From: Heptranchias perlo
Lineage: Eukaryota
DNA length: 64,000 nucleotides
Reading direction: 5' to 3'
NCBI RefSeq assembly: GCF_035084215.1
Contig: NC_090330.1
Coordinates: forward strand, 12,710,001-12,774,000
A model generated the notes under the pieces. It was not told the DNA's origin, made no database searches, and was given only the letters and a program-made list of their open reading frames with translations. The translations under genes and the position numbers were made by a program. The stretch's first letter is position 1, and the number at the start of each line of letters is the position of its first letter. Of the stretch, positions 1,370 to 31,307 are shown one piece after another.

Positions 1370-1415
1370 ATGCAATCCTGCAAAATCTGTCTGCACCTCC
1401 AACTCCTCAGCTTGG
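1370..1415 (+). CDS. IgSF receptor exon 1, signal peptide (MQSCKICLHLQLLSL)
   Basis: ATG at 1370 with A at -3. Strong phase-1 donor G|gtgagt at 1416 joins in frame to 9818, giving MQSCKICLHLQLLSLALFAFVELAVG-DEQEE. Confidence 0.75.
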
Positions 1416-1779
1416 GTGAGTATCACTGCTGGCAGCATCTCAGAACAGAATGATTGAGAGTGCAGTTTACTGCGGACAACTAGGAACTTCCCTTAGTAGA
1501 GTGGCATTGATTCTTTCAAGAGACTACACCATTGTGCTGCTGTGGTAGACCAGCATCATTATTCGTGTAGTTTTTCAATTCTCCCAAGCAGTCATCTGAA
1601 AAACAGCATCAGATATGATAGACTTCTTCGTCTCTGCAATGGAAACATTCTTAAACAGGAAGGAAAGCTAAAGTAACTAATTTACAATTACTTGACAAAG
1701 AGAACTTAACCAGTGAGCTTGGCAGAATTTTTAGCATCTTTCAGCAAAACCATCTTCAGAAAATTTCAGTTTTTTTAAT

Positions 1780-2140
1780 TGAAAATTATGAGGGGTTTTA
1801 ATAGGGTTGACAGGGAGAAACTGTTTCCACTGGGTTGGTAGGAGGGTTGGTAACCAGAGGACACAGATTTAAGATAAATGGCAAGAAAGCCAGGGGGAGA
1901 TGAGGAGAAATTTTTTTACTCAGCGAGTTGTTAAGATCTGGAATGCATTGCCTGAAAGGGTAGTGAAAGCAGATTCAATAGTAACTTTCAAAAGGGAATT
2001 GGATATATACTTAAAAAGGAAAAGTTTGCAGGCCTATGGGGGAAAAAGCAGGGGAGTGAGACTAATTGGTATCTCTTTCAGCGAGCCAGCACAGACACGA
2101 CGGGCCGATTGGCCTCCTTCTGTGCTGTATGATTCTATGA
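1780..2140 (+). mobile_element. CR1 LINE 3' end
   Basis: RRNFFTQRVVKIWNALPERVV C-terminal ORF2 motif, CR1 3' UTR and tatgattctatga tail. Confidence 0.85.
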
Positions 2141-3644
2141 AGACCCAAGTGAAAAGCCAAAGCAGGAGACAACAAAGGTTGAAAAGGAGAGGATAGAAGA
2201 TATGGTAAATCAAAAATTAATGTAGGTGACATCAAGACTTGGTTTTAAAAACTTGTAGGGAAAAGTATAAAGTGGAGGTACTGAGTAGTCACCTATTAAT
2301 ACTCTTACAATGCTGTTATATAGTACAGTAGAAAGTGCAGTATTGTATCAGCAAGATAATTAACATAATATAGCAAATGTGGGTTTTATTCTTTCCAGTT
2401 ATAGACACCTAATTTTTTGAGATCATGGGGCGATATGCATCGTATTTCAGCTTCCAATCTTAAATAATTTGTACAAGTTTTCATTTGAATATGGAAATGT
2501 ACATCATACATTAGTATTTATTTTTGAGAAAGCCAAGTTATTATTTGAAACAAGTTCATTCAATTTTATAGTTTTATCATTTGGCTATTTCATATAGAGA
2601 AAAGCTAAGTAAATCTACACTCAATATAATTAAAAGAAAAGTCAATAAATAATATCTTAATATTTTAGTCCTTGGATGTTCTTAAACATTTCTTACATAA
2701 GGTGTAGTTAGAATTTAGTTCTCTCTCTATATATATAAAAAAGCTAGACTTAGGCCTTTTAAATGAGAATTATATGAAGAATTCCTCTTTCTCATTGTGA
2801 GGAAATGCATTAGTGTTAGGCAAAATTAGATTGTATTGTACAAGGGATTAAGGCATTTGGCATGTTGCCTTTCCCTCAGGTGAGTTACTGTCATTGCTAT
2901 GTTTAGAACTTATCTTATATTTACCGTAAATTTATCACATCAAGTTGTCAGAATTAAGCTTTTGTTAAATCTTCTAGAGTGTTCTTTGGAGGGTGGGGCT
3001 GAGTACATTATTAGTGCAGATTAGAGGGAGCTTTACCTGACCTGGGAGTGCCTGACACTGGTTGCCTGAAATTGGAAGAGTTACGTGCCTCAGCACTCTA
3101 AAATTCTGCATTCTAAAACAATCATCCATCGAATATTTTAGGTCTTGAAATTACACTGTGCGAATATTAAACTCTTAATGTGTTTGTATGCAATTTTCCT
3201 TGTCCACTATTTTAAATAGGTTAATTTATCTGTTAGAATGGCAGACAAAGGAATTGGAAATGAACTTTGGAAACATAATCTTATTTTGTCTGATGGTGCA
3301 TTTCTTTACATTGAGGAAATAAAATATCTAAGACCTCTTTGTAAAGGGTTTTACATAACATTTATTTTCCAACTCACTCAATCCCTAATGGAGAATTTTA
3401 GTTTACAATCAACATCCAACAATTTAAATCTATCTTTGGTTGGGGAAGTTAAGCAGGGTCTCTTTGTAGTGAAACTGGCTTCTAGACGACATCACTAGCA
3501 ATGGACAGATTCGGTAATCAAATACCTGAACCAGACAGGTCTGCAGTACTCCAGGCGTGTTGATGATTGACTAACTAGTCTGGCTCGTTAATAGAGCATA
3601 AAAGACTTGGCCTGTCTCTGGGAGCTGGAAATGTTCTCACATTT

Positions 3645-3760
3645 CCAGATAATCCTTTAAGCGAATGCCTGAGAAGGGTGGGGTGACTCTGGCTGGACAA
3701 GCACGATTGTATTTACTTGTGGTCCATGCAGATAAGCTATGCAGTTTTAGCTGGATAAAT
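3645..3760 (+). promoter_or_regulatory. Candidate intronic haematopoietic enhancer (GATA/RUNX/CACCC cluster)
   Basis: AGATAA 3647-3652, GGGTGGGGTG 3676-3685, TGTGGT 3718-3723 and AGATAAG 3730-3736 in apparently non-repeat DNA; motif evidence only. Confidence 0.3.
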
Positions 3761-5238
3761 GCCAGCAGTAACTAATTCTTGGCTTTTGTCAACCTGTATC
3801 TAAACTCCGGATTTAGGTATGCGGGGTGTCTTGACGGGAAGAGAGTGTTTACTCTATATCAGTCAAACAGAAACTCTGTGTAGATTTCTCAGCAGTTTGT
3901 TTTGGAGATTCTTAATGATTAGTTTCTGCGTTTGTCAGACACCTGGTTGACCGAAAAAAAATCTAATTGAACTTGCATTTTTTAAGTTCTCTTTTTGTTT
4001 CCCTCCAATTTTCTTCCCTCCTCTCTTGAAGATATTGACTCATGCTAGGGTACAGTTTCATAGGTGCCCGTTATCCTCTGTTAAAACACCAATGTCATTC
4101 TTCATTCTTATGAATATAGATATTAGCCTAGCAATTCGGCCGCCCAGCACTCGTTTCTCGGGAGCTAAATGGCGGACTACGCTCACAATAAGGTGGGCAG
4201 GAAGCGGGTGCATATTGCTGGCTGGAAGCGCACCACCTCCCACATCGGTTGCGCTGGGGTCAGAAGCGCATATTGGCAACATTTAAAAGGGGAAGTCATT
4301 TGTTTCAATTAGGGTCCTGCGCTTCTTGCAGAATCCGTTCTCGATTTTCGAACGCCCCAGTGCCTTCACCCACCCATGTGCTGAACTCACTCAGCGCAAC
4401 GTAGCACTAACAGGCAGGCAGGCCCCCATACTTACCAGAGTGATCCTCCCGACCCCACGTTAAAAGAACACAGGTGGCTCCCCCACCCCGGCTACCAATC
4501 CCCCCAACCCCGCTACCAAAAATTGGGCATGTCCGACTTTCTAGGCCAGTGAGTGTCAATAGACTATTCACCATTTAGAGCATCAAAATTGGGCCCAATC
4601 CTGTCGTCACTTGACCACCACACTCATCTACTTTCCATGAGAGTCAATGGTACTGATCAAAAGCAGGAACACTGGCTGATATTTTCCCCACTCTAATTTA
4701 GGGTCTGCTGGGGCTAATTGTGAACACCCATACTGCTATTCCAGTTGAGGTCAGCACAAATTGGAGATAAAACTTGGGCCATTAGCTTTAGGATTTAAAA
4801 TTAATTGTTCTGTATGATAGTCCTGGACTTACTTGAACAACATATTTTTACAAGAAGTGTGAACTGCAAGTTGCTTGCTTAGCTGGCACATGATGACACA
4901 TATGTGGATATGGTAACATCATGCCATTCAGTGCTGCACAATCATTGCCACGGGAAAAAAAATTACCAATCAAACGCATTAGGTCAGCCACTACAGTCCA
5001 CTGCAAAATCTTATCTGCAATGGGTACATTACTAAATATTATGGGCTGCAGAAGTTATTAATGAATAGTCATTCATTGGCTGTGGGATCTTGCTGTGTGC
5101 AAATTGGCTGCTGCATTTGTCTATATAACAATAAGGGTAATCAAAAGTAATTCATCAGTTGTAAAGTACTTTGGGATGTCCTGAGAATGTGAAAGGTATT
5201 ATATAAATGCGAGTTATTTCTTTTTCATCGACACCATT

Positions 5239-5581
5239 ATGGATACTAAGGAGCTTTTTCCCTTCGTTGAGGGTACTATAACAAGGGGACATAGATTCAA
5301 GGTAAAAGGCGGGAGGTTTAGAGGGGATTTGAGAAAGAACTTTTTCACCCAGAGGGTGGTTGGAGTCTGGAACTCACTGCCTGAAAGGGTTGTGGAGGCA
5401 GGAACCCTCACAACATTCAAGAAGCATTTGGATGAGCACTTGAAATGCCATAGCATACAAGGCTACGGACCAAATGCTGGAATATGGGATTAGAGTAGAC
5501 AGGGCTGATGGCCGGCGCGGACACGATGGGCCGAAGGGCCTCTATCCGTGCTGTATAACTCTATGACTCTATGACTCTATG
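5239..5581 (+). mobile_element. Young 5'-truncated CR1 LINE with (ctctatga)n tail and ACCATT target-site duplication
   Basis: ORF 5239-5493 (RGHRFKVKGGRFRGDLRKNFFTQRVV); three tail repeats; ACCATT at 5233-5238 and 5582-5587. Confidence 0.9.
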
Positions 5582-5582
5582 A

Positions 5583-6017
5583 CCATTGGCTCAGTGGGAG
5601 CACTCTTGCCTCTGCGTCAGAAACTTGTGGACTTAAGCACATAATTGACACTTTTGTGGAGTACTGAGGGACTGCTGCACCATCGAAGGTGCTGTCTTTC
5701 GGATGGGACATTAAAACGAGGCTCTGTCTGCTGTCTCAGGTGGACGTTAAAGATCCCAAGGCACTATTCAAAGAAGAGCAGGGGAGTTCTCCTGGTATCC
5801 TGGTCAATATTTATCCTCAACCAACATCACCAAAAAAAATTATTATCTGATCATTATCTCATTGCTGTTTGTGGGAACTTGCTGTGTGCAAATTGGTTCC
5901 TGTGTTTTGCTACATTACAACAGTGACTACACTTAAAAAGTACTTAATTGGCTGTACAGTGCTTTGGGACGTGCTGAGGTCATGAAAGGTGCTTTATAAA
6001 TGCATGTTATTTCTTTC
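5583..6017 (+). mobile_element. tRNA-derived Deu-domain SINE (SacSINE1-like)
   Basis: tRNA-like head (tggctcagtgg), Deu-like core (ggtgctgtctttcggatgggacattaaaacgagg...aagatcccaaggcactattc) and a tail ending aaaggtgctttataaatgca resembling the L2 3' ends in this window. Confidence 0.7.
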
Positions 6018-6664
6018 TTACACACTGCAGTCTTTTATACTAATGTAGTAAAAGAAAAAGCCAATGGAATTGACAAACTCATTTATTCTTACAGACATCA
6101 AATTAATATTACTGAGTATAAGTGTGGAATGGTTGGAATTTCCTTTCTCAAAGCTTTGAAAAACAAAGTGTAATTTTTTTTTAATTGACTGAATTCCAGT
6201 AAATTTCCAGATGGTTGGCATCACTAGGCTGCACACAAATTCAAGCTGTGACAAGGAAACATTATTCTGTGTCTTAAATTGCTCATGGGTGGCCAAGAAA
6301 GAAGATTTTTTTTCTTAATGTGACCCTAGCAGTGCATTTACCCACTGGGCTATTAAGGGTGTCCATACTTCGGAATTTTGTAAACTTTTCAGGCAACAAT
6401 TTTACTGTATTCTCGTGTGCACTGGCGTTATTTATAAAATCATATTGTGACAATACACGTAAACAATTGATTAGAAACAAATTATTGATATTAATGAACG
6501 CTTTCATCATCTTAAATTGTTCTTTCTGTCAACTTGTTGCAAATACCAGGATCCCATTCTGTATACGAAGTAATGAATAACTTGTCATAAGACTGGAAAA
6601 CTTATGTTGTAACGCCCTGGATCCCAGTGCCTGCCATGTGATATTGTGTCATGATAATTTATTA

Positions 6665-6769
6665 AAATAAAAACAGCAAATACTGGAAACGCTCAGCAGG
6701 TCAGGAGAGAGAGATGTGTGGAGAGAGAAACAGAGTTAACGTTTCAGGTCCGTGACCTTTCATCAGAAC
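6665..6769 (-). mobile_element. Penelope-type terminal repeat fragment with minimal hammerhead motif
   Basis: Reverse complement reads gtt-CTGATGA-aaggtc-acg-gacct-GAAAC-GTT-aac; same family as 10774, 35700 and 36030. Confidence 0.65.
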
Positions 6770-6879
6770 ACATGATATTTTATTATGTTGCTTGTGCCAT
6801 GTTATTTGCTTACATGTGTCTCGTAGGCTAGCCAGTTCCTATTAATACTGTCAATATGATTACTAAAATAAAGACAGCT

Positions 6880-7030
6880 GGGGTGAAATTCTACTTTTGC
6901 AAACTGGGTGGTAGTGGATCGGCTGCCTGTTATACACCCAGCCTGATAAGAAAATTGGGCGTTGTGTATAACTGGCGGCCGATTTGCTACCGCCCATTTT
7001 GTGCCCCTGCTGAAGTTGAATTTTACCCCC
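6880..7030. mobile_element. Short palindromic MITE
   Basis: Ends ggggtgaaattc...gaattttacccc; related copies at 14845, 17690 and 29821. Confidence 0.65.
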
Positions 7031-7189
7031 AGCCAGTCAGACAGCATCCAAAAGAAAAAAGATAGTTTAACATTTGGGTGGGGCTTTTTTATCAGAAATA
7101 TTAAACTTATTGTGCCTCTTTGAGATGCTGACTGACTTGCTGTGCACTTTGATGTTATTTCAGAATTTTGACATTCGTTACTTTTCTAA

Positions 7190-7565
7190 TAGGTGACCTA
7201 ATAGAGATCTTTAAAATTATGAAAGGGTTTGATAGGGTTGACGTAGAGAAGATGTTTCCACTTGTGGGGGAGCCCAAAACTAGGGGCCATAAATATAAGA
7301 TAGTCATTAATAAATCCAACAAAGAATTCAGGAGAAACTTCTTTACCCAGAGAGTGGTTAGAAAGTGGAACTTGCTGCCATGTGGAAGTAGTTGAGGCGG
7401 ATAGCGTTTAAGGGGAAGCTAGATAAGTACATGATGGAGAAAGCAATAGAAGGATATGCAGATAAGGTTAGACGTAGTAGGGTGGGAGGAGGCTCGTTTG
7501 GAGCATAACTGGCATGGACCAGTTTGGCCAAATGACCAGTTTCTGTGCTGTAAATTCTTTGTAAT
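7190..7565 (+). mobile_element. CR1 LINE 3' end
   Basis: GDLIEIFKIMKGFDRVDVEKMFPLVGE...RRNFFTQRVV followed by the 3' UTR. Confidence 0.85.
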
Positions 7566-7899
7566 TCTGTTTTCTCTATTGTATTCTAGACTGTATTGTG
7601 GACCGTTATTTTTAAAGCCTGAATTTGTCCAAACCCTTTATCATATAATTGTGTTATATTACTTGAGATATTTCTAGGATCCTCTGACTTAAGAATGACA
7701 CAATACAAAAGAAACTTGGACAGAGCAAAATGATAGAGTTCTGAATCACTGAAAGACCACTCAGATAGTTTGGACCTGTAAGCAGAACGAGTGGTGATTG
7801 ATTTGCAAAGACTGTTTGCATTCTTATGTAAAAGGAACAAGCCTGAGAAGAAGACCTGGAAACCATTGGTTAGACCATAATGTTTGAGGCAAGTAATTC

Positions 7900-8130
7900 A
7901 ACAGCTTGCATTTAACGTAATAAAACATTCCAAGGCGCTTCACAGGAACATTATCAGACAAAATTTGACACCAAGCCACATAAGGAGATATTAAGGCAGG
8001 TGACTAAAAGCTTGGTCAAAGATGTAGGTTTTAAGGAATGTCTTAAAGGAGGAGAGAGAAGTAGAGAGGCTGTGAGGTTTAGGAAGGGAATTCCAAAGCT
8101 TAGCGGCAAGACAGCTGAAGGCATGGCCAC
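7900..8130 (-). mobile_element. L2-type LINE 3' end
   Basis: Reverse complement matches the + strand copy at 41440-42150 (ggaattccct...aaaacct.cctctttga.caagcttttg). Confidence 0.65.
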
Positions 8131-9817
8131 TAATTCAGTTTTACTGAAGCAATGCATCAGCATGTAGCTGAGACATAATGATTAGAAGGTCCCAAATTTC
8201 TTCTGTGTTGTGTAACAAAATTGTAAAGCTGTTTGGAAAGAAAGATTAGCACAGAAATTTCCCCCCAGTATTGGCATCATCATTATTATTCCAGGAAATG
8301 CCAAGACTTAGCAATACGGGGCAATAGTCAACAACTATAAATGGAACGAGCTGAATCTCAACTAGGAAACAGATCTCAGAAACATAGAGATAGGATCATT
8401 AAAATTTTATTAAGTTAATTATTTTCTTTTAAAACTGCTTTTTGTCGTAAAACCTTCAAAAACAGTCGGATCTATTTGTAGGTAAATGTTATGCAAGTGA
8501 ATTCCTAATAAACTAATATTCATCAAATAATTTTCTTCTAGTCTTACACACAGTTGTTGCTTTAGTCTCTCCTTTCCTGAAGGCGGAGGCTGATATTTTC
8601 TTTGCTACCTCTCCCAACATTCTTCATGAGTGAGTCTGAACAGTGAGCACCAGCAAGTTATTTGTTTGTGGGGGCCATCAAAGCCAATCCCAAAACTGTC
8701 TTCATCTGATGCCCCAGTATAAGTATATTCTAACAAAGGTCACTGGATAGCAAATGGAGTGGGAATGCTGGTCCATTTTCCCCATTCCTAGCTACAGACG
8801 CCAAAGCCAACTGTACTGCCCCCTGCTGCCTCAAGTCAACTAACTTAACAAACTATCTCTGTGGGACTGCCCTTGCATGGTTCTATTCTTACCTATCCGA
8901 ATGCAGCCAGTACATCTCCAGCAATGTCTTCTCTTCTCGCTCCTCCACTGAACTCTTTGGAACTCCCTTCCTAAACCTCTCTGCGTCCCTCTCCATCTTC
9001 AAAAACCTTTTCAAAACCCATCTCTTCAACCTAGCTTTCAGTCCCTCCTCCCAATCTCTCCCTTCTAGGGTTGGCGCCCATTTTCCTTATGCCTATGTGT
9101 GAAGTGCCTAGGAATGCTTTTTTCATGCTAAAGGTGTTATATAAATGCAAACTGTTGTTGTTAACACAGAACCTGGGATTCATCATTGTTTGTCTGCTCA
9201 CGACAAATCTCCTGTTTCCAAAATGAACAACTGGCTACCAATATTGCAAATGTTATAGTTCTGATTAGTTCCCCAATAGCACGGTGTAGAAACGAGCCAT
9301 AGAGACAAGGAAAGTCCCAGGTTTAATCCCTGATCAGTGCTGTGGTGACAGTACAGGTGTTACTATTATCCTCAGTACCCTTAGACTGCAGATACACACA
9401 GTCTAGTTTTTCTTATTCCTCATAAGCTCCACATATGCCATTGTACACACTGTTCCTTCTCCTTGAATCCTTGCTATGTTGAAACCAAGTCTCATTTCAC
9501 AGTCTCTTACACTAACTTGTTCTTTGCAGCACCTCAGAACTGCAGACTGTCTTACCTCCCTCAACTTCAGTCTTTTCTTCCTCCTACATTCTTCAGACTT
9601 TTCAAAAACAAGATTGATATCATCCAGTCACCACTTCTTGAATTACTTTATCTCCTCTTCTACTCTTTTCAAAGTTGATGGTGTCCTACACTGTGGACCG
9701 TAGCTATTCATGTAGGTTTCTCAATAAAAAAAATTCCTAAAGTTAATGGTAATTAATGAATTTTTAAGTAACATTGATACTGAAATTATGTTACATAATC
9801 TTGTGTTACTATTTTAG

Positions 9818-10192
9818 CTCTGTTTGCCTTCGTTGAACTGGCTGTTGGAGATGAACAGGAGGAGGTGTCACTGACCATTGGAAATGTTGCTCCACTTAGC
9901 TGCTTAATCCCAGGGCAACTTTCGTATGACCGTCCTGTGAGCTGGTACTGGACACCACTATATCCAGAATGCAGCGGTTCCAATGGTGGCAAGATTCTGG
10001 ACATTTATCCTGATGGGCGAACAATATTCGAAGAAGAGTTCACAGGGCGAGTGATTGTACACCGATCAAAAGTTAAAAAGGGTGACTATTCAATCACTCT
10101 AAGGGGAATAAAGATACCTGATTCAGGAGTGTTCATCTGCACCCATGAAGACCTTTCTGAAGAGAAGAAAGTGAGGCTAATAGTGAAACCAG
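9818..10192 (+). CDS. IgSF receptor exon 2: end of signal peptide plus V-set Ig domain with G6b (MPIG6B)-like signature
   Basis: Acceptor attttag|, phase-1 donor G|gtatgt. B-strand Cys (LSC), C-strand WYWTPLYPEC, FTGRV, GDYSITL and DSGVFIC. Confidence 0.9.
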
Positions 10193-10876: not shown

Positions 10877-10995
10877 AAATAATTCCTGGTTAGGCATGTC
10901 ACAGATCATTTGCAAGGTAGAGTTTCCATTTATCCAATGGAACATAGGAACAGGAGTAAGCTATTCAGCACCTCGAGCCTATTCCACATTCAATT

Positions 10996-14092: not shown

Positions 14093-14368
14093 GGTGCTGG
14101 TCTAACCTCCACCTCACATTGGACCCACCTGTTGTGTCAGTTGGAGATAAAGTCACATTAACCTGCACGTACTGTGGAGCGAAAGTGCTAACACCCCGAA
14201 TAAAATGGCAGTATGATGGATTATCGATATCAGATACTGGGGTTGTGAGCATTACCAACAATGGACAGTCTCTTGTTATTTCTCGTGTGGATCAGGAGCA
14301 CTCAAAGAAGTATGGATGTAGTATGGCCAAAAAAGAATCTGTTGTTACTGAAATATGCCTGGACATAG
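14093..14368 (+). CDS. IgSF receptor exon 3: second Ig domain (C2/I-set-like)
   Basis: Acceptor ttttttttctag|, donor G|gtaaaa, phase 1-1. GCWSNLHLTLDPPVVSVGDKVTLTCTYC...IKWQYDG...SLVISRVDQEHSKKYGC...EICLDI. Confidence 0.88.
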
Positions 14369-16393: not shown

Positions 16394-16843
16394 AGCTTGA
16401 TTTTCTAGACTCCACTATGTTTGCTGGAGATTATGATTATCCAGTGAGTACACCAATTCCTATTATTACTTCTGAATCGACAACCACATCGGCTACCCAA
16501 GAAACCACCACACAAGTTCTACCAACACCTGAGTCCACAAATGCTTCACAGATCATGTGGAATGATTTAGAGTGGATGCAGGACACCTCTCCAGTTACTA
16601 GTCTGAGAACTGAAAGTTCCCCCACTGCAACGCGATCTACAGTAAAAATCGAGGAAACATCTGATCCATGGAATGAAGATGTAAATCATGGTCAGCAGGG
16701 ATCAACTGCAAGAGACAGTCCTGTTGTAGTAGCAAATGGTGGTATGGGTCAAATTCCCGTATACATCTGCATTATCCTGGGTGGAATTCTGCTACTTATA
16801 ATCATCACATTCCTTATCAAGCGACTCAACAGATCGTGTAAAT
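16394..16843 (+). CDS. IgSF receptor exon 4: DYDY motif, Ser/Thr/Pro mucin stalk, transmembrane helix and juxtamembrane KRLNRSCK
   Basis: Acceptor ttgcag|, phase 1; ORF 16357-16866; TM VYICIILGGILLLIIITFLI at about 16759-16818. Two phase-1 gtaaat donors at 16838 and 16844, so the end is uncertain by 6 nt. Confidence 0.85.
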
Positions 16844-18098: not shown

Positions 18099-18129
18099 GT
18101 GGAACCCATGATGTGGAACGCAAAGCAAG
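18099..18129 (+). CDS. IgSF receptor exon 5 (31 nt, cytoplasmic: CGTHDVERKAS)
   Basis: Acceptor ttcaacag|, donor AG|gtacac; phase 1 to 2 keeps the frame open into 26002. Confidence 0.65.
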
Positions 18130-19849
18130 GTACACACTAATGTGGATTTTTCACACATACAGACTTTATTACAAGTCATTTTCAGTGTTTTCAGACATGC
18201 CAGGCAACAGGAGAAAATGGCAAGGTTCAGGGTCATGCAGACCAAATTTAGGAAAATATCAGGTAATATAGCTGATCAACAGCTGGAACAGGTTGTCAGG
18301 AAGGGTGGTGGAGGTCATTCATTCAAGGAACAGCTGGATGCTGTAATGGGAATCCAGTAGGCTTGGTATTCAGGAAAGATATCAAATGAGTCTTCTTCAT
18401 CTGAACCTACCTTGCGAAAATAATGTCTGCTTTAATAAATATTTTTCTTAATTGAACTTGCAGAAGTTTGAGCTGTATATACACTAAATGGGATAGAATT
18501 ATCAAACTCCTCAAATGGAATTTCCAATCCTGGCCATGTCAAGGATCCCCTGGGGAAGTGTGATCATAATGTGATAAATTTTATATTGAGTTTGAGAGTG
18601 ATGTAGTTAAGTCCGAAATTAGGATCTTAAATTTAAACAAAGCCAATTATGTAGGTATGAGGGGTGAACTGGCTAAGGTATATTGGGAAATTAGATTAAA
18701 AGATATGACAGTAGATAAGCATTGGTGAACATTTAAGGAAATAATTCATAATTCCCAATGAATATACATACTCTTGAGGAATAAAAAAAGCCACAGGAAA
18801 AGTGATCCAACTATGGCTAACTGGAGAAGTTAAGGATAGTATTAGATTAAAACAAGAGGCTTACAATGCTGCCAAAAAGAATAGTAAGCCTGAGGATTGG
18901 GAGGGTTTTAGAAATCAGCAAAGGATAACCAAGAAATTGATAAAGAGGGAGAAAATTGAATATGAGAGTAAATGAGCAAGAAAGATAAAAACAGATTGAA
19001 AAAGTTTCTATAAGTTTATAAAAAGGAAGAGATTAGTGAAAGTAAACGTGGGTCCCTTAGAGGCAGAGACAGGAGAAATTATAAAGGGGAATAAGGAAAT
19101 GGCAGAGGCATTAAGCAAATATGTTATATCTGTCTTCACAGTAGAAGACACAAAAAACACACTGGAAATAGTGGGGAACCAAGGGTCTAATGAGAGTGAG
19201 GAACTTAAAGTAATTAAGATTAGTAAAGAAAAAGTTTTAGAAAAATTAATGGGACTGAAAGCCGACAAATCCCCTGGAACTACATCCTAGGGTTTAAAAA
19301 GAGGTGGCTGCAGAGATAGTGGATGCATTGATTTTGATCTTCGAGAATTCCCTAGATTCTAAAACAGTCCCCGTGGATTGGAAGGTAGCAAATGTAACCC
19401 AACTATTCAAGAAAGGAGGGAGAGGGAACTACAAGCCAGTTAGCCTGACACCAATAGTAGGGAAAATGCTAGAATCTATTACTAAGGACGTAGTAACAGG
19501 GTACTTAGAAAATCATAACATGATTAGGCAGAGTCAACACGGTTTTATGAAAGGGCAATCGTGTTTGATAAATCTATTAGAGTTTTTTGAGGGTGTAACT
19601 AGCAGGGTAGGTAAGGGGGAACCATTGGATGTAGTATATTTGGATTTTCAAAAGACATTTGATAAGCTGCCAGTTAAGAGGTTGTTACATGAGATTAGGG
19701 CTCATGGGATTGGGGGTAATATATTAGCATGGATTGAGAATTGGTTAACAGACAGAAAACAGAGACTAGGAATAAACGGGTCATTTTCAGGTTGGCAGGT
19801 TGTGACTAGTGGGGTGCCGCAAGGATCAGTGCTTGGGCCTCAGCTATTT

Positions 19850-20956
19850 TGAGTCAATGGGAATCAGGTGGAAAACTCTCCAGTGGCTGGAGTCATACCT
19901 AGCACAAAGGAAGATGGTAGTGGTTGTTGGAGGCCAATCATCTCAGCCCCAGGACTTTGCTGCTGGAGTTCCTCAGGGCAGTGTCCTAGGCCCAACCATC
20001 TTCATCTGCTTCATCAATGACTTTCCCACCATCATAAGGTCAGAAATGAGGATGTTCGCTGATGATTGCACAGTGTTCAGTTCCATTCGCAACCCCTCAG
20101 ATAATGAAGCAGTCTGTGCCTGCAGGCAGCAGGATCTGGACAACACCCAGGCTTGGGCTGATAAGTGGCAAGTAACATTCCCACCAGACAAGTGCCAGGC
20201 AATGACCATCTCCAACAAGAGAGAGTCTAACCACCTCCCCTTGACATTCAATGGCATTACCATCACCGAATCCCCTACCATCAACATCCTGGGGGTCGCC
20301 ACTGACCAGAAACAACTGGACCAGCCACATAAATACTGTGGCTACAAGAGCAGGTCAGAGGCGGGGGATTCTACAGTGAATGACTGACCTCCTGACTCCT
20401 CAAAGCCTTTCTACCATCTACAAGGCACAAGTCAGGAGTGTAATGGAATACTCTCCACTTGCCTGGATGAGTGCAGCTCCAACAACATTCAAGAAGCTCG
20501 ACACCATCCATGACAAAGCAGCCCACTTGATTGGCACCCCAACCACCATCCCTTCACCACCGGCGCACCGTGGCTGCAATGTGTACCATCTACAGGATGC
20601 ACTGCAGCAACTCGCCAAGGCTTCATCGATAGCACCTCCCAAACCTGCGACCTCTACCACCTAGAAGGACAAGGGCAGCAGGCACATGGGAACAACACCA
20701 TCTGCACGTTTCCCTCCAAGTCACATACCATCCTGACTTGGAAATATATCACCATTCCTTCATCGTTGCTTGGTCAAAATCCTGGAACTCCCTACCTAAC
20801 AGCACTGTGGGAGAACCTTCACCACATGGAATGCAGCAGTTCAAAAAGGCAGCTCACCACCACCTTCTCAAGGGCAATTAGGGATGGGCAATTAGGGATG
20901 GGCAATAAATGCTGGACTTGCCAGCAACGCCCACTTCCCATGAATGAATAAAAAAC
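19850..20956 (+). mobile_element. Nested 5'-truncated LINE of the second lineage (RT MFADD to 3' end), ATTT duplication
   Basis: GVPQGSVLGPTIF...MFADDCT...MEYSPLAW; ends tgaatgaataaaaaa; ATTT at 19846-19849 and 20957-20960; the host CR1 resumes exactly. Confidence 0.85.
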
Positions 20957-21613
20957 ATTTGCAATCTATATTAATGACTTAGATGAAGGGACCGAATGTA
21001 ATGTATCCAAGTTTGCTGATGATATAAAGCTAGGAGGGAAAGTAAGCTGCGATGAGAATGCAAAGAGTCTGCAAGGGAATATTGACAGATTAAGTGAGTG
21101 GGCAAGATGGTGGCAGATGGAGTATAATGTGGAGAAATGTGAGATTATTCACTTTGGTAGGAAAAATAGAAAAACAGCATATTTTTTAAATGGTGAGAAA
21201 CTATTAAATGTTGGTGTTCAGAGAGATGTGGGTGTTCTTGCACACGAAACACAGGAAGTTAACATGCAGGTACAGCAAGCAATTAGGAAGGCAAATGGCA
21301 TATTGGCCTTTATTGCGAGGGAGTTGGAGTTCAAGAGTAAGGAAGTCTTGCTGCAATTGTACAGGGTTTTGGTGAGACCACACCTAGAGTACTGTGTGCA
21401 ATTTTGGTCTCCTTACTTAAGGAAGGATATACTTGCCTTAGAGGCAGCGCAACAAAGGCTCACTAGATTGATTCCTGGGATGAGAGGGTTGTCCTATAAG
21501 GAAAGATTGAGTAGAATGGGCCTATATTCTCTAGAGTTTAGAAGAATGAGAGGTGATCTCATTGAAACATTTAACATTTGAAGAGGGCTTGACAGGGTAG
21601 ATGCTGAGATGAT

Positions 21614-22466
21614 GGCCCCAATTTTCAAATGAAATTGCGGGTGCGTTGGGGGGCTGCGAAAATTGGGAAAATCCTGAGCAGGTGAGGAAGCCGGCCCCAA
21701 CCCGCCGACTTCTGGGTTTCCCACAGGCGTGCCTGTGTGTGCGCGCGCTTCCCGAATGCAGAAGTCCCGCCGGTAATTAAAGCCGGTAGGATGATAGTTA
21801 AAGAACCAAATGTACCTCATCGAGGTACTTAAGGTACTTTATTTCTGACATAGTAGATAGTTAAACCGATTTTAAACTTACCTAGGCGGCTTTCCCAAGG
21901 CTTCCAATTCATGCCTGGTTTTACCAGGCGTGAAGGGCCGGATCAGGCAAAAATACAGTAAATAAATTAAATAAAAAACCATTGCACAAAGTTAAAAAAC
22001 AAAATAAACCTACCTTTCCACCAATGTCACCTGCACCTCCCTGCTCCGATGTCCCCCTCTCTGATGTCCCTCTCAGCCCCCGATGTTTCCCTCTCCGATG
22101 TCCCTCTCAGCCCCCGATGTCTACCTCTCTGATGTCCCTCTCAGCACCCGGATGTCCCCCTCTCCAATCGCCCCCTCTCCCCCTCCACCCCCCCGATCTT
22201 CAGCGCACTCCAATCTCTTTTGAAGCACTGGATCACGTCTCTCTCTCTCTTTCTCTCTCCCCCACTTCGGCGTTGCAGCTCCTATCGGTAGCCAGCCTTT
22301 CAATCAGGCTGGCTGCTGGTTGCGAAACCCAGAAACAACTTTAATCACCATCAATTACATTGCGATCGTGTTGGAAAAGGTGTTTTTTTTAATTCGGGTT
22401 TGCCACGTGCACCTTCACCACCCCCCCCCCCCCACTGCCATCCCGCCACCATTTCAAAATTGAGCC
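21614..22466. mobile_element. Non-autonomous TIR element (MITE, possibly PIF/Harbinger-like) nested in CR1
   Basis: TIRs ggccccaattttcaaatg / catttcaaaattgagcc, flanked by (T)GAT on both sides; internal ccgatgtccc tandem repeats; non-coding. Confidence 0.75.
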
Positions 22467-23202
22467 TGATGTTCTCCCTGAGTGGAGAGTCTATAACTAG
22501 GGGTCATAGTCTCAGGATAAGGGATTGGATATTTAGGACTGAGATGAGGAATTTCTTCACTCAAAGGGTCGTGAATCTTTGGAATTCTCTACCCCAGAGG
22601 GTGGTGGATGCTCAGTCGTTGAGTATATTCAAGACTGAGATCGATAGATTTTTGGACCCTAAGGTAATCAAGGGATGTGGAGATTGGTTGGGAAAGTGGA
22701 GTTGAGGTAGAAGATCAGTCATGATCTTTTGAATAGCAGAGCAGGCTCGAGGGGCTGTATGGCCTACTGCTGCACCTATTTCTTATGTTTCTTATGTTTA
22801 ACTTTGTCCTAAACACTTAAATCAGTTCATTATGTCATTTGAGTACTACATGCAATGGAAGGGCTTCCTCTGGCCCATGTATGAGATCTTTGACCAAACT
22901 GCACGGTGGATTTGTGACAAAAAGGAGAAATGGTAGCAGGGTAGGGCTCTGTCCTGTTGCTTAGCACCTTGCAGTGAGAGATTGCCTCCTGGAATCCCTT
23001 ACATGAAGAAATGGATTGAACAATTGGTGACAGGTGCATCTGCTACACAGCATTGTACCTGGACATCTAGGACCTTAAGCTGGCTTGCACATCTCAAGCT
23101 TTCGTGCATAAGGCAGATAGCTACCATATAGCTTAAGAAACTCTGAGGCTTGGCATAACAGCTAATGGAAGGTAGTACCTGCAGGCTAGTTTACGAGACC
23201 AT

Positions 23203-24282: not shown

Positions 24283-26001
24283 AGTCTTTATACATCCAGG
24301 GTTTAGTGCCTGTCAGGTTTGAAGAGGCAAGCAGTTGCTACCAAAGCTCCACACTTCTATTTGGGAAAGTGGAGTTTGGTATGTATCCACGCTCTGCTCA
24401 GGATGGTCATCATGCATTCACACAATTTATGGTGAATTGTGCTGTACTATGCCATTTTTGAGTTCTTGATATCTGCTTTGCCTTTTGAGGGCTCAAACCC
24501 GCACTTGTCAGTTGTCCAATGACCAGTAGGTGGATATATCCTTTTGGGACCAAGTTGCCTCCAAAATGACATTGCAGAAAATGGAATATTGGAACACAGG
24601 CAACCCCTTGTGGCAGACTTGATAATCCAAATCCTGGGTCAGGAAGTTCTGGAGCACTACTGATTATTGACCAGTGAACAGCGCAGTAATGGAACTGGAG
24701 TCGATGGGGGGGTGCGGTGGAGGGTCAACCTGTTATTGGGATTCCTCCCATTCAACTTCAGGTAACCCTGCAAGCCAATGTGCTAATGGGTAGAATTATC
24801 CTAGCTGCACATGCAGCATGAAGCTTACAAGTGCTCTGTGAAGTTTTAACTAGTTAAATTCCAGCAATACCTCTTCACACACTTGAGGGTCGCTAGAGTT
24901 TGACTCTTGCTAACCTTGCCTAAGCTCTATGGATTTAAGTGGGGTATGTCCTTATGGGGGACAGAATGCACCAAATATTGGACAAACAGAAACTCTACCT
25001 GTGTGGTCAATAGCAGTGAAAGGTTTCAGTGTGTGTTAAGCACTCAGCTGACTAAAATAGCACATGCAACTCATGTTGTCAATACTGAATGTGGAAACAC
25101 AGGAAACCGTTGCGGAAATGAACAGGAATTAATGGTGGAAGAAAATACTGTCCATTAGAATATTTGTCATTTTCTTTCCCATTTCCAACTGAATAGTTTT
25201 CCTGCAAAATACAGGAATTCTGGCAGTTACTGGAGTACTGTTTAAAATGGAGGCAAATGAAGTGGAAAGGGATGGGAGAAATAGGCAAAAAAAGGGGTTG
25301 AAGTTGCTCAGGTCAATATTCAGACCAGAGGGATGCAGAATGCCAAGGAGAAAGATGACTTTTGCATTGTGCTTGGTTGGAACATGTAGGGGGTCAAAAA
25401 TGGTTTGGTCAGTCAGAGGGGGAACTGAAATGGTGTGCTACAGAGTGGTCAGTAAGTGCTATTTATGGAAAGGTCCAAAATAATTGCAGTCATTTTCACT
25501 GAAACAGAGAAGGTTAAGGGAGAACTAATAGAGATTTTAAATATTATAAAAGGTATTGAAAGGGTAAATAGTGAAAGATTTTTCCATTGGTTAGAGAATC
25601 AGTAATATGGGGGCATAAATGCAGGATTATCATATTTCAAAGGGAATTAGGGGACCATGGTCAGGGGCCTGGGCAACCCCCACAGTGGGCAGTGGCTGAA
25701 GTTTCTGGGCACAAGGGGCAGGTAGGTGTCAGAAATGTGACTGAATTGCCCCTTGTGCCCATCTGCCCTATGCTAATTATGTGGCCTCTCACTGACTCCG
25801 CAAACTCTGGTGGGGTCAACGCTGGAGGGTACCGACAAGCACAATCCTTGTGTAATCGCCGGAATTGGATTCCAAGGAATTTCAGCTGGGATATCTATTA
25901 TTAGCTAAATGCTAATACATGAGTTTTCCCTTGAGATTTATTTTGTGATATTTACACTTCTTTAGTATTTAGTAAATTTCTCATTTTTTAAATTCTTGCA
26001 G

Positions 26002-26048
26002 TGATCCAATCAACCACGATTCCTCGGGATTAGAGGGAATTCCACTTG
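26002..26048 (+). CDS. IgSF receptor exon 6 (SDPINHDSSGLEGIPL)
   Basis: Acceptor ttcttgcag|, donor G|gtaagg; phase 2 to 1, open frame. Confidence 0.7.
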
Positions 26049-26529
26049 GTAAGGAAGGATGATGCATATCTCAATTTCTTTCCCTTCCCTTCTTGAGAGT
26101 GCCTTACATCTAAAAAAAATTTAAAAAAATGTTTTTCCTTCCTTGTGTCGCCTTGCATGCTGCCTAACATCTCTGGTCAACCAGGTAGACAAATGATCTA
26201 CTCGCAGGCCTGCACTAATGCTACTTTGAAATCAGATGCTCAGAGGCCTTGTGAGGGAAGTCTGACGTGACTCTGTCTACGATTTTATTTCTTTCTGTGT
26301 GGGGAAGCACTTGTCCTCCAATCCCCACAGTGGTTATGGATAAAGTTGAGTTTAGAGGATTGATGTGTAAACATACATTCTCCCACTCTATGATGCAGTG
26401 TATTTGGAATTTGCCGTTCTATACTACCATGCACATCTCAGCATCTGTACATTAAAATGTGCTGTAATTAATATATGCTGTGTTTTTAATAAGTTTCACC
26501 CCACTTTGTTATTTGTTGTTTTTTGAAAG

Positions 26530-26604
26530 AAACCCAAGATGAGTGCCTGGTGCAAACAGGGAATGAAGATGATGGCCCTGAGGGGACTGTAAATGACATT
26601 AATG
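26530..26604 (+). CDS. IgSF receptor exon 7 (ETQDECLVQTGNEDDGPEGTVNDIN)
   Basis: T-rich acceptor ending aag|, donor G|gtaagt; phase 1-1; acidic. Confidence 0.75.
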
Positions 26605-27809
26605 GTAAGTAGAATTACTCATAGTAAAATTAACACTGTGGCTTATTAATGACACCACTCCATTTGACCAAAAGCTTTTATGGTGGACTCCAATGTAATA
26701 TAATGCATTGCTTTTGTTTTTAAGTTCACATCTCACCTTCTATTTGGTCTCCCGACAACATCACTAGCTCTGAGGGTGGGAAAACAACTTACTGTTCTAT
26801 AATAATGTTTTCCCGTTATTTATCTGCCAGGAAGTGCACGAGAGCAGGCCAGGTGACTATCTCTTTCTGAATATTTCTCTGGGCAAAGTCTCCAAGTGAT
26901 GCAAAACAGATCGATTCCCCAACTGTGCTGAGTTAGTTGATCTTATCTGAGATGGTGGACAGGTGCTAAAATTGGCTTTAGTTCCAGAACTAGGGAGTGG
27001 GGAAATCTACTTTAATTGGCTTACCAGTTCACTATACACTGATCCTTGCTTAAGATGTTGGGTGAGGATCAGAAATGCTGTGATATCCCCTATACTCAAA
27101 TAGATTACTGCGTTCATGGTCTAGGCTCATACATGAAGAATGGCCACTTGAGTAAAGTACTGGAGGGCAACTTGTGCCTATAGTACCATACCCTAATGTG
27201 CCTTTGAGAGAGAAAGAAATGAAAGCAGAGGTGCATCTGGTATTGGTCTGCCATGGTATCAAAAATTGTTTTGTTGCTGTACTGATAACACAAGAGTGAG
27301 CACTTGACATCACACCCCTTCAGTGTTTACCATTTCTAATCATCACGTAGTGCAGTTACTGAATTACTATATCTAGGACTTCATCAATGGGGAAAAAATG
27401 TTTTTCAATTCTTCAAAGACATTTTCTTCATGTCTTGAGCAAGTCTAACCAACAGTAAGACACCTCTTAACTTTGATGACTCCACTCTTAGTCACCATAC
27501 CACAATTTCCAGATTACCTCATCATCTCTTTAATTCTTGTCAACCACGATGGTATCCTGCACAAAGGGTCCTGACCCTTCACCATGGCTTTTCAATAAAT
27601 AAAAATCTTTACCTCAGAGGACAGTCTGTTTTGCGATCTTTGCAAAAAAACTTAGGATCGTTTAAATTAAATATGAGCTTGTTTCATAAGAGCCCACAAA
27701 GTTGCCACGAGATTTATCATTTATCATTATGCTTTTAAGTGTTACTGTGAAAACACAAACAATTATATACTGGTTGTGGATTGCTGCATGTTGCTTATTG
27801 TCTCTCTAG

Positions 27810-27862
27810 GAGAAGTACAGGAACCCAACAAGGATGAAGATGAGGATACAACAGAATCAGAG
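27810..27862 (+). CDS. IgSF receptor exon 8 (GEVQEPNKDEDEDTTESE); alternative end at 27867
   Basis: Acceptor tctctctag|; donors GAG|gtcagg (phase 0, 27863) and CAG|gtactt (phase 2, 27868). Confidence 0.72.
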
Positions 27863-28189
27863 GTCAGGTACTTTTGACAAAAGTATTCACTTTATGGTGA
27901 ATTAGAAGTTGACTAAAAATCACCAGATAAACCTGAGGGCCTTTACAATTTATAAGTTTCTCATCACGGACTGATTTAGGTTGTCGGCCCCAAGGCAGGC
28001 TAATTTAGCTTAAAACACAATGCACAAGTCTGTAGGATTACTCATGTGGCTGTCCTACCAGTAATTTCATTCACCATGAATGTAATTAAATCTCTTTGTA
28101 TGGAGTATTGCAGTAGCTGCAGCAGTTCTAAATTACTCACTTAGAAATGTGTCAAATATAAGGTAAAAAATTGCAAATGTCATACCATT

Positions 28190-29540
28190 ATTTAAGACAG
28201 GAAGGCAAAACCATGAAACAACAGACCGATCAGTTTAATGTCAGTTGTGGGGATATTACTGGACTCTATCATCAGGAACAGAATGACTGAGCATTTGAAC
28301 AAGTATGAGCTGATCAGAGTCAGGATTTGTGAAGGGTTGGTCATGTCAGACTAACATAGTTGAACTTTTGAGGAGGTTACTAATATGGTTTGACAGGACT
28401 GTCTATGGATGTTGTCCATTTGGACTTCCAGAAGGCATTTGATAAGGTTCCACACAAGAGATTATCAACAAAAATGAGAGCGCATAGAATTGGAGGTAAC
28501 CTTGTGACATGGGTTAGTAATTGGTTGGGATGTAGGAGACAGGGATAAAAGGAATGTACACTGATTGGCAGGATGTTACAAGTGGTTTTTCCCAGGAATC
28601 TGTACTCGGGCCTCAGTTTTTCACCATATATATCAATGACTTGGATGAACGATTAGAGAGTTGTATATCAAAGTTTGCAGATGGCACTGTTATGTGGTAC
28701 AGTAAGGGAGCAGGAAGTTAGAAAATGACAGACAGATTAAGTGAGTGGGCAAAACTGTGGCAGATGATGTTCAACATGGGGAAGTGTGAGGTCATCCACT
28801 TTGGATCCAAAAATAAACTATTTCCTAATGGCGAAAGACTAGGGGCTGTGAAGGAGCAAAGGGATTTGGGTATCCAGGTACAAAAATCACTAAAAGCTAG
28901 TTCACAGGTACAAAAGTAATCGAAAAGTCTAATGGAATGTTGGCCTTTATCTCAAGGGGGTTGGAATACAAAAAGGAAGTTATGCTTCAGTTGCACAAAG
29001 CCTTGGTCAGACCTCATCTGGAATACTGTTCAATTTTGGGCATCGCACCTCAAGAAGAATATATTGGCCTTGGAGGGGCAGGTTCACCAGATTGATACCA
29101 GGGCTTAAAGAGTTAAATTATGAGGCCTGGTTGCATAAACTTGGCTTGTATTCTCAAGTTTAGAAAGTTGAGGGGTGATTTAATAGAGGTGTTTAAAATG
29201 ATAAAGGGATTTGATTGGGTGGATTGCTCTGGTGGGGAATCCAAAATAAGGAGGAACAATCTTAAAATTAGAGCTAGGCCATTTAGGTGTAAAATCAGGA
29301 AGCACTTTTTCACACAAGGGGTAGGCAGTGGAAATCTGAAATTTGTCCCTCATCCCGAAGACTGTGGATACTGAATCAATTCAAACTTTCAAGACTGGGA
29401 TGGACAATATATTTGTTAGGTTAGGGTATCAAGGGAAATGATCAAAGGCGGGTAAGTGGAATTGAGGTGCAGATCATCCACGATCTAATTAAATGGTGGA
29501 ACCAGTTCGGGAAGGCTAAATGGCCTACTCCTGTTTCTGT
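28190..29540 (+). mobile_element. Degenerate CR1 LINE (RT to 3' UTR)
   Basis: DRLSEWAKLWQM...KCEVIHFG and LRGDLIEVFKM fragments; many frameshifts. Confidence 0.85.
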
Positions 29541-29820
29541 GTGGTGTGCTATCCACGTAGATCTGGTGATGCCATCTTTCCTTTGTTAGTTTCTACATTT
29601 GAGCTGGAAAGTTCTGCTTTTTGTGAATGTTATGTTTTGTGGCAGTCATCAACAGATTATTAAGCATGTTCTAGCTAAAAAAATTGTTAACAACAATAAT
29701 TTTCACAAGAACATAAAAGAATATTCTCTCAGGGTAACTACTCCATATATACTTTATTAAGTTTTTTTTCTCAGTTTTCGCATTATGTTTTGTAGGGGAG
29801 ATTGGGGGATAAGTGAAAGT

Positions 29821-29993
29821 GGGGGTAATTTTGACTTTGGGCGATAGTGTAAAATAGTGATATTGGATCAGCTGCCCGGTGCACATCCCTCCCAATTTTC
29901 ATTTCCATTGCCGTCAATCGGGAGAGGTGTATAACGGGCAGCTAATCCCTTGTCGCCCGTTTCACACTTTAATCCTAAGTCAAAATTACCCCC
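29821..29993. mobile_element. Short palindromic MITE
   Basis: Perfect terminal inverted repeat gggggtaattttgactt / aagtcaaaattaccccc. Confidence 0.75.
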
Positions 29994-30225
29994 ACTGTAT
30001 TCTTTGTATCCCTGTGAAAAAGATGAAAATCATGGATGGATATTAACATACCAGCCAACTATTTAAAGGGAATGTTAACTGTGTGACCAAACATGATCAG
30101 ATAGTGACATAAAGGAGAAAGCAATTCTGCAGATAATTGCTATCACTTACAGATATTTATCTGGAGAGATTCTGGAAGCGTAAAATGTTTTTCATTTTTA
30201 GTTTTTAAATAACCTTCAATTACAG

Positions 30226-30363
30226 GGCTCCTCTGTGGTGTACAGTAAGCTTTCATTTCAAGCATCCGTGCAGAATAGGCACACTGGGATTTGGGCAAGG
30301 ATTGCTCCTTTAACACATCTTCGTCACAGAACAGGATCTTCTATTGCCAATCACAGAGAATAA
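30226..30363 (+). CDS. IgSF receptor exon 9: ITIM-bearing (GSSVVYSKLSF...; stop 30361-30363 if read through) or a 19-nt microexon ending at 30244
   Basis: Acceptor ccttcaattacag|; phase-0 reading gives VVYSKL; the strong internal donor ACA|gtaagc at 30245 makes the 3' end ambiguous. Confidence 0.55.
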   Translation, partial: GSSVVYSKLSFQASVQNRHTGIWARIAPLTHLRHRTGSSIANHRE

Positions 30364-30701
30364 TCGTATGGCGGTTATTTTATTGTTCATTCAAATATCG
30401 GCAATCAGTTGACACACATCAACTAGCTTCATACTCTTTCTGACTGGGCAAAAGTCCCAGGAAAATATGGAGTGGCATAATTAACGGCGTAAATCACTTA
30501 TTCCATAATTTCCTTTCTCCTGTACCGTTCAATGGTCCCTATGCCATAGATGCGCCACTACAAATTGTGCATGGAGACAGTTTTAAATGCTGATGTTTAA
30601 ACATTGGTTAATATTAAATTCCAAGGTAGTTTAATTAACTGACAAATTCAGAGATGAAGACATGCATTCATATTTAAATTTCCAGATGTGTTAGTTTTTA
30701 G

Positions 30702-30722
30702 AAATCCTTTGCAAACCTACCT
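30702..30722 (+). CDS. Possible 21-nt microexon of the IgSF receptor (alternative acceptor at 30686)
   Basis: tttttag| acceptor and CCT|gtgagt donor; frame-preserving. Confidence 0.35.
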
Positions 30723-30947
30723 GTGAGTATGTGACCATTGAAAAAAAGTGATGCAGTGTGTGTTGGTGCACTGTGGTTTTGTTTGTGGGAGCAGGCCTTG
30801 CTTGCTGTGTAGCTTGATATAAGGTATGATGCAGGGAGGAGGCAAACAAAAGAGAGAAAATACATTTAAACGGTTGGTGGATGTAAACACATTTTCTTTG
30901 CATTGAATATAAAGTATATTAAAATACAAATACTACTTTTTCTTTAG

Positions 30948-31028
30948 GTGAAAGAAGTTGATGTAGGAGGCTCCAATCATGCAAAGGAATCAGAAGATGT
31001 TAAGCCACAAGATGAAGACCAGCAATGA
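30948..31028 (+). CDS. IgSF receptor terminal exon (VKEVDVGGSNHAKESEDVKPQDEDQQ*)
   Basis: Strong acceptor tactttttctttag|; the phase-0 reading is acidic like the upstream tail exons; TGA at 31026-31028. Confidence 0.65.
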   Translation: MKEVDVGGSNHAKESEDVKPQDEDQQ

Positions 31029-31301
31029 ATGAATTCTTCATCTATGGCTCAAATTTAATACACTGTGTTCCCTAGGATACATAACAGCGGTTTGTGTTAA
31101 TGTAGTGCCAGTGCTGCGTTTGCTGACAAACAGCCAATTAAGATCATGTTAAGTCAACTAAATGTGCCCTATACCCTTTCTGTAATGGCAATTTCTGCTT
31201 TCTTGTTAACCATTCTTACTTTTAATGAAATAATGATCTATATTCTATAATACTATAGAAAGAAGTTTGACATGACTGTTTATTTGTTCCTTGCTTGGTT
31301 G

Positions 31302-31307
31302 AATAAA
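31302..31307 (+). terminator. Polyadenylation signal AATAAA of the IgSF gene
   Basis: First AATAAA after the terminal stop, about 270 nt downstream. Confidence 0.6.

Follow-up and report, generated by a model that had tools for sequence, protein, structure and literature searches.

A predicted two-domain immunoglobulin receptor of Heptranchias perlo points to an undescribed family kept in lampreys and elasmobranchs, with an echo of G6b in one loop

The stretch of DNA analysed here (hereafter the window) covers 64,000 nucleotides of the Heptranchias perlo contig NC_090330.1, from 12,710,001 to 12,774,000 of the forward strand, and it carries between its positions 1370 and 31307 a gene for an uncharacterised cell-surface protein, followed by a second gene further downstream. 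The first of these genes is real, and it is common to sharks, rays and lampreys. Its predicted product consists of a head of two immunoglobulin (Ig) domains placed on a mucin-like stalk, and judging from the sequences it represents an undescribed and ancient receptor family of the immunoglobulin superfamily (IgSF), present in lampreys and elasmobranchs, in which a single loop recalls G6b (MPIG6B), a regulator of human platelets.

Nine exons between 1370 and 31028 (Table 1) encode 477 residues that are 100% identical to residues 40-516 of P0001, which is a RefSeq 'uncharacterized protein' from Heptranchias perlo, and the window contains a single copy of the gene. GT donors and AG acceptors flank the eight exons from 1370 to 27862, the first of which begins with ATG, and the phases of these exons are compatible (1,1,1,1,2,1,1,0). 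The N-terminus of P0001 is 39 residues longer owing to an in-frame upstream ATG at 1253; nine other records begin at or just after the position equivalent to 1370, without that ATG. Seven alternative gene ends were translated, and only the junction between 27862 and 30948 yields a database protein. All the database proteins compared are gene models, and the gene structure therefore rests on models and not on transcript reads.

The first-pass annotation of this DNA had located the same eight exons and the last one at 30948, and had added two small exons at 30226 and 30702 within a product of about 490 residues. The former are confirmed; the latter are not part of the main product, as neither P0001 nor any orthologue with a tail extending that far contains them, and the length does not stand either, the model that includes both small exons (492 residues) being unsupported. 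According to a rough consensus score, their acceptors are weaker than all ten supported ones, and among the 209 AG sites of that intron 31 and 65 score at least as high as the acceptors of 30226 and 30702, respectively. These small exons contain a hexamer with the consensus of an immunoreceptor tyrosine-based inhibitory motif (ITIM) at 30235-30252 (+) and a Tyr-x-x-Ile at 30722-30739 (+). Together with the tandem donors 27862/27867, they could give an alternative tail bearing tyrosines. The weak acceptors and a chance estimate argue against such a tail: the ITIM-like hexamer obtained by reading through 30226 is at chance level, since 12 of 726 equally good pseudo-acceptors of the window yield one, and 31 such sites lie in that intron.

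The layout of the protein agrees with its earlier description: signal peptide, V-set domain, Ig domain of the I/C2 type, stalk rich in Ser, Thr and Pro, transmembrane helix and acidic tail. In the numbering of P0001, the V-set domain is marked by Cys83, Trp97 and Cys162 with an extra Cys106, and the second domain by the canonical pair Cys204 and Cys255 with the extra Cys181, Cys207 (within CxYC) and Cys268; the head contains eight cysteines, four beyond the need of two Ig domains. The sequence G-D-Y-D-Y (16426-16440), located where the head meets the stalk, is kept in all nine stalk-bearing elasmobranch records while its flanks drift. In the lamprey proteins P0159 and P0160 a poly-Asp/Glu stretch directly follows the second Ig domain, with 17 acidic residues among the first 30 stalk positions. 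The tail has 103 residues, of which 30 are acidic and none is tyrosine, and neither an ITIM nor an ITSM (switch motif of the immunoreceptor tyrosine-based kind) was found in the tail of the 477-residue product. Besides, tyrosine is absent after the GTHD motif from the nine elasmobranch and the two lamprey tails compared (0/9 and 0/2). The exon coding for stalk and membrane helix (16394-16843) is symmetric, of phase 1/1; the Hemitrygon model P0007 omits it, and the Pristis model P0003 stops within the stalk. These two models suggest that soluble isoforms may be produced.

The same 10 proteins came out of both word-indexed searches: nine carry the name of a shark or ray, and the tenth record is ray-like. 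The V domain is 75-84% and the second Ig domain 83-92% identical to the window protein in the eight other elasmobranch records, and in the seven records with a membrane helix the identity is 57-73% for the stalk and 48-71% for the tail. An exhaustive search with the V exon against 1.84 billion representatives gave 214 matches at E<=0.001, the best 150 of which were examined. Among these 150, beyond two elasmobranch representatives, only P0024 matches the whole domain in one stretch (73.7 bits), and the remaining 147 are multi-V proteins with summed scores. P0024 belongs to the lamprey Lampetra planeri, and a relative at 99% occurs in Lethenteron reissneri. Over both Ig domains the lamprey protein shows 38% identity (203 residues, pair E 7e-48), and it keeps all eight cysteines, with gaps of 23-57-19-24-3-48-13 in lamprey vs 23-56-19-23-3-48-13 in shark. 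Better lamprey models, of 447-523 residues, continue with a long stalk and a membrane helix and end in a tail that is acidic and lacks tyrosine. P0024 itself seems to be frame-shifted ahead of the membrane helix when compared with P0159 and P0160. Its automatic name, 'myelin-oligodendrocyte glycoprotein', is rejected, since the remaining lamprey records bear no such name and MOG reaches only 27 bits with the family profile, far less than the lamprey domains obtain.

Profiles built from elasmobranch sequences only give the lamprey V domain 76 bits and its second Ig domain 66, with the next protein at 36 and 17, respectively. In a V-domain tree of 30 rows sharks and lampreys fall on one side of a branch (81/81); this tree used 23 of the 138 available controls, left out G6b and CD4, and its bootstrap had not settled, and for that reason the two-domain match and the cysteine pattern are the main grounds for the orthology between shark and lamprey. 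As the lamprey proteins keep the eight cysteines and the order of head, stalk, membrane helix and acidic tail, the family predates jawed vertebrates and has been kept in lampreys and elasmobranchs, the lamprey orthologues being newly recognised here by this comparison. The proposal that the receptor is ancient is in this way upheld and extended, and so is the statement that it matches no named gene. No bony-vertebrate protein with this pattern was found among the best 150 of the 214 matches, a list below which a divergence like that of G6b (about 20 bits) would fall.

The motif W-x-W-x-P-x-x-P-x-C in strand C and the CC' loop was the reason for comparing the V domain with G6b, and the likeness is both real and specific. 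All 13 family proteins have the pattern WxWxxxxPxC, which none of 148 other Ig proteins contains. When 27 residues of strand C and the CC' loop were used as query, human G6b (6r0x_E) was the sole match at E<=10 in 177,635 PDB sequences (E 0.022, 8/21 identical), and with 45 residues it ranks first of 6 PDB matches. The Pfam family G6B (PF15096) is matched by the V exon with E 1e-4 and 22.7 bits and by P0001 with 19.2 bits, the curated cut-off being 24.3; at E<=0.1 all 10 elasmobranch proteins match it (best 7.8e-4), and no control V-set protein does, either at E<=0.01 (0/29) or at E<=0.1 (0/8). The 37 controls were short, high-scoring picks from the 148 Ig proteins. These data are consistent with a surviving, two-domain ancestral form of the G6b lineage, which would serve thrombocytes as a receptor of heparan sulfate or a different glycan and from which mammalian G6b would have lost the second Ig domain and the stalk, gained ITIM and ITSM and moved to the major histocompatibility complex (MHC). 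This explanation is possible but should be taken as tentative, and a descent common specifically to G6b and this family deserves the same reserve. The residues of the loop query were picked after the motif was known, and an E-value of 0.02 is weak; non-members often receive 20-40 bits from narrow Ig families of Pfam (Izumo-Ig, 2B4 and CD47, for example). G6b is not among the best 60 of 1021 whole-domain PDB matches, the best 60 of 99 profile matches or the best 60 listed in a search with strands D to G. Neither of the two lamprey proteins scanned matches Pfam G6B, and G6b is in none of the 8 PDB matches of the lamprey loop query (0/8).

At the level of single residues the picture is mixed. Most of the loop residues in common with G6b (two Trp, Pro, Cys and Gly) are invariant from lamprey to shark, Cys106 of the shark protein aligns with Cys53 of G6b in the construct numbering of PMC6742478, and Lys113, which is Arg in lamprey, aligns with Arg60. 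The latter has been described as a key heparin contact of the Arg-rich V domain of G6b, in which K54, K58, R60 and R61 are the heparin residues (PMC6742478, accessible part). On the other hand, Ser and Gly stand at the positions of Lys54 and Lys58, so that two of the three basic loop residues of G6b in the aligned stretch are not conserved, R61 lying beyond it. With 14 Lys/Arg vs 16 Asp/Glu the V domain of the shark is not basic, and the lamprey one has 16-18 Lys/Arg vs 10 Asp/Glu. Past strand G there is a spare cysteine in both proteins: Cys129 in G6b, 21 residues after the cysteine of strand F, and Cys181 in the shark protein, at a gap of 19. The disulfide named for G6b in the accessible part of PMC6742478 is Cys35-Cys108; from the positions of the spare cysteines at the equivalents of Cys53 and Cys129, an extra disulfide common to G6b and the shark protein may be inferred.

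Architecture and chromosomal position also separate the two. The gene of G6b lies in the MHC class III region. The gene identifiers of three orthologues, 121284344 (white shark), 119977746 (catshark) and 127576127 (sawfish), do not occur in the gene lists of the MHC chromosomes given in the accessible part of the PMC10751288 supplement (1,022 rows for white shark, 1,515 for catshark and 417 for sawfish), and herc2, mpig6b and ly6g6 have no entry in those lists either; the off-MHC position in three elasmobranchs counts against G6b ancestry. G6b has a single IgV ectodomain, with an ITIM and an ITSM in the tail of G6b-B (PMC6742478, accessible part), whereas two Ig domains and a stalk are found here, an architectural difference already pointed out by the first-pass annotation. 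Because of the Pfam score below the cut-off, the two Ig domains with stalk, the tail without ITIM or ITSM and the off-MHC position, the protein is not filed as a G6b member, and the membership in the G6b family previously proposed is not established. A more elaborate version appears unlikely: that a pre-gnathostome two-domain G6b ancestor persists nearly unchanged on the thrombocytes of sharks and lampreys, as a stalked receptor like GPIb-alpha with a sulfotyrosine segment, and that its bony-vertebrate form would have been reduced to a single domain, gained ITIM and ITSM and entered the MHC.

The AlphaFold2 model of the V domain has a predicted local distance difference test (pLDDT) of 92 and adopts the usual V-set fold, its CC' loop containing a short helix. 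It resembles the adhesion receptors P0, CAR, nectin, JAML and MXRA8 (Z 14-15, root-mean-square deviation 2.3-2.9 A, 101-111 residues aligned), and these are tied with CD4 and antibody V domains at Z 13-15. There is a short strand at residues 58-60, to be set beside the G6b fold variant without strand C'', in a model whose alignment consists mostly of generic V domains. No G6b chain was found among the best 50 or fewer matches of each fold search (Foldseek PDB, VIA wide and VIA second look), nor a G6B cluster in the Atlas listing; the top matches are ties among generic V domains, and the missing G6b therefore excludes nothing. The full-length AlphaFold2 model (pLDDT 32) was set aside, and the homodimer prediction for residues 66-272 scored 0.00, did not use the alignment and gives no evidence either way.

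The family could also be sister to MXRA8, or to the wider group of V-set adhesion proteins with CAR, JAML, P0 and B7, and the G6b-like loop would then be convergent. MXRA8 is the top whole-domain sequence match in the PDB and the top structure match in the Atlas (template-modelling score 0.81), holds nominally the first rank, in a tie with others, in VIA second look (Z 15.2) and is second after CD276 in the family-profile search; in the V-domain tree the neighbour of the family is the MXRA8-like control P0142 (93/83). Nevertheless, the E-values of MXRA8 are summed over two V domains of about 20 bits each, its V-V layout is not that of a V and I/C2 head with stalk, and the loop cysteine is missing from the stretches shown. 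Furthermore, the branch of P0142 in the unsettled tree is very long (3.97). This origin is considered doubtful.

It is improbable, on the evidence gathered, that the family belongs to the CD4/LAG-3/G6f group as a relic of the precursor V-C2 type with a role on lymphocytes, in which case it may correspond to the lamprey 'CD4-like' gene. Strands D to G of the V domain match domain D1 of human CD4 best (E 3e-5, among the best 60 listed), and strand F of the second lamprey domain has WxC, which has been reported as the signature of CD4 and LAG-3 in that strand, the lamprey CD4-like protein being of V-C2 type with WxC (PMC10768021, accessible part). The pattern Cx(C/H) follows the membrane helix in three of the eight full-length elasmobranch proteins, but it is missing from the other five and from both lamprey tails (2/2), and there is no (F/Y)xxL. 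All elasmobranch records have YxC instead of WxC, the V domain is encoded by one exon, without the intron typical of CD4, and shark CD4 and LAG-3 are already known as other genes (PMC10768021, accessible part).

The reading preferred here, to which a probability of about one half is given, is that this ancient and slowly evolving vertebrate type I membrane protein is an adhesion or ligand-capture receptor without tyrosine signalling. The three readings on ancestry, for G6b, MXRA8 and CD4/LAG-3, may overlap with it. The V and I/C2 domains would form a rigid head, in which the four extra invariant cysteines (106, 181, 207 and 268) probably make two extra disulfides, one of them plausibly joining the CC' loop to the linker between both domains according to the predicted pairing. 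The stalk, predicted to be O-glycosylated and about 120 residues long, would raise the head over the glycocalyx. The ligand-binding heads of GPIb-alpha and PSGL-1 have an acidic segment rich in tyrosine beside them; by analogy, the acidic D-Y-D-Y segment at the boundary between head and stalk, possibly sulfated, may be an anionic docking site. Since the head changes more slowly than the stalk and the tail, its putative ligand would be a conserved self molecule on another cell or in the matrix. The acidic tail, without ITIM or ITAM (activation motif of the immunoreceptor tyrosine-based kind), would not directly recruit SHP or Syk, and any output could depend either on the juxtamembrane basic/GTHD segment as an anchor or on a partner chain. 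Analogy would place the receptor, as a guess, on a blood or vessel-wall cell. Single-cell marker tables of blood exist for bamboo shark and lamprey, to which the family gene identifiers could not be linked in the accessible part of PMC13186322.

Several points weigh against the adhesion or ligand-capture reading. The alignment behind the V model has 60 rows, 50 of which come from unrelated V-set proteins, and the structural scores are tied with those of antibody V domains, so the fold gives no specific clue to function. Unverified downstream exons might supply a tyrosine-bearing tail. Besides, the lamprey stalk is poorer in Ser and Thr (12-16%) and does not contain D-Y-D-Y.

No published description of this gene was found in the literature, subscription papers and bioRxiv supplements lying outside the scope of the search; five orthologue LOC numbers do not occur in the papers searched, and the accessible parts of PMC12227049 and PMC12999481 contain nothing relevant to this gene. 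One-to-one tracing between lamprey and shark is possible for few IgSF receptors, and this family keeps its two-domain head, its eight cysteines and its layout. The slow change, the conserved layout and the absence of a detected bony-vertebrate counterpart make it a candidate ancestral adhesion or blood-cell receptor that was lost or remodelled in the bony-vertebrate lineage. If the G6b link is true, a regulator of human platelets would have a testable origin, and if the two-domain ancestor is also true, the G6b lineage would be more than 500 million years old and the protein an ancestral thrombocyte marker. If the link is false, the family would still be an ancient and undescribed one within the IgSF, of interest to comparative immunologists. 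The loss of G6b causes macrothrombocytopenia and myelofibrosis (PMC6742478, accessible part).

Table 1. Features of the receptor gene in the window (positions counted from the first letter of the window).
Feature	Position	Strand	Evidence
Exon 1, signal peptide	1370..1415	+	Splice site, orthologue starts
Exon 2, end of signal peptide and V-set Ig domain	9818..10192	+	Pfam V-set E 3e-5, G6B E 1e-4; AlphaFold2 pLDDT 92
C strand and CC' loop motif W-x-W-x-P-x-x-P-x-C-x5-G-K	9943..9993	+	8/21 identical to PDB 6r0x_E
Exon 3, second Ig domain (I/C2 type)	14093..14368	+	Pfam I-set E 7e-10; cysteines invariant to lamprey
Acidic segment ending G-D-Y-D-Y, directly after the Ig head; candidate tyrosine-sulfation site	16394..16440	+	
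Mucin-like stalk	16441..16761	+	Whole stalk about 123 residues, 37% Ser/Thr/Pro
Transmembrane helix, P0001 395-413, uncharged	16762..16818	+	Hydropathy scan, sequence
Tail exon with conserved GTHDVE motif	18099..18129	+	
Tail exon	26002..26048	+	
Tail exon, acidic	26530..26604	+	
Tail exon, acidic; donor 27862 is the donor of the database model	27810..27862	+	
Last exon: coding part, stop at 31026-31028, 3' untranslated region, poly(A) signal AATAAA at 31302-31307	30948..31307	+	

Three phase-compatible exons of the downstream gene lie in the window (37011-37082, 56621-56738 and 61631-61768, +), with a CpG-rich start near 36400-36900, and their product resembles the N-terminal part of HERC2; there was no PDB match and no usable Atlas match for this candidate. 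Between both genes, at 33214-33567, a 118-bp unit is repeated in tandem, in three near-identical copies (99% match). Self-similar repeats make up around 19% of the window, among others at 18940-21619, 28601-29039, 48721-50582 and 59086-59662, and they include open reading frame fragments resembling reverse transcriptase, which are presumably of the CR1/L2 type of long interspersed nuclear element. The Rfam scan of the window gave no match.

A ligand-binding head on a mucin stalk is known from MAdCAM-1, the TIM family, GPIb-alpha and PSGL-1, which are architectural analogues only, TIM-3 being a weak partial match (E 0.01). With lamprey NICIP the family has in common that it includes a lamprey type I membrane protein of V and C2 domains; identity is ruled out, since NICIP has 324 residues and two ITIMs (PMC5071834, accessible part) and the lamprey orthologue has 447-523 residues, a long stalk and a tail free of tyrosine. 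CD4, LAG-3, the lamprey CD4-like protein and fish G6f-like resemble the family in the V-C2 unit, in the D-G strands nearest to CD4 D1 and in the WxC of the second lamprey domain. However, the family has no conserved Cx(C/H), FxxL, ITAM or YxN, its V domain is encoded by a single exon, its stalk is long, and it has two Ig domains and not four; four Ig domains and an ITAM have been reported for fish G6f-like (PMC3528668, accessible part). MXRA8 provides the best sequence match over the whole V domain, the best Atlas structure match and a similar C' segment, but it is made of two V domains, whereas the family combines V and I/C2 domains with four extra cysteines and a mucin stalk. Compared with G6b-B (PDB 6R0X), the shark protein has a second Ig domain and a stalk of 120 residues, no ITIM or ITSM, a V domain that is not Arg-rich and a gene off the MHC chromosome; both proteins carry the W-x-W-x-P-x-x-P-x-C loop in a V-set domain, and both have a basic residue where Arg60 lies and a spare cysteine after strand G.

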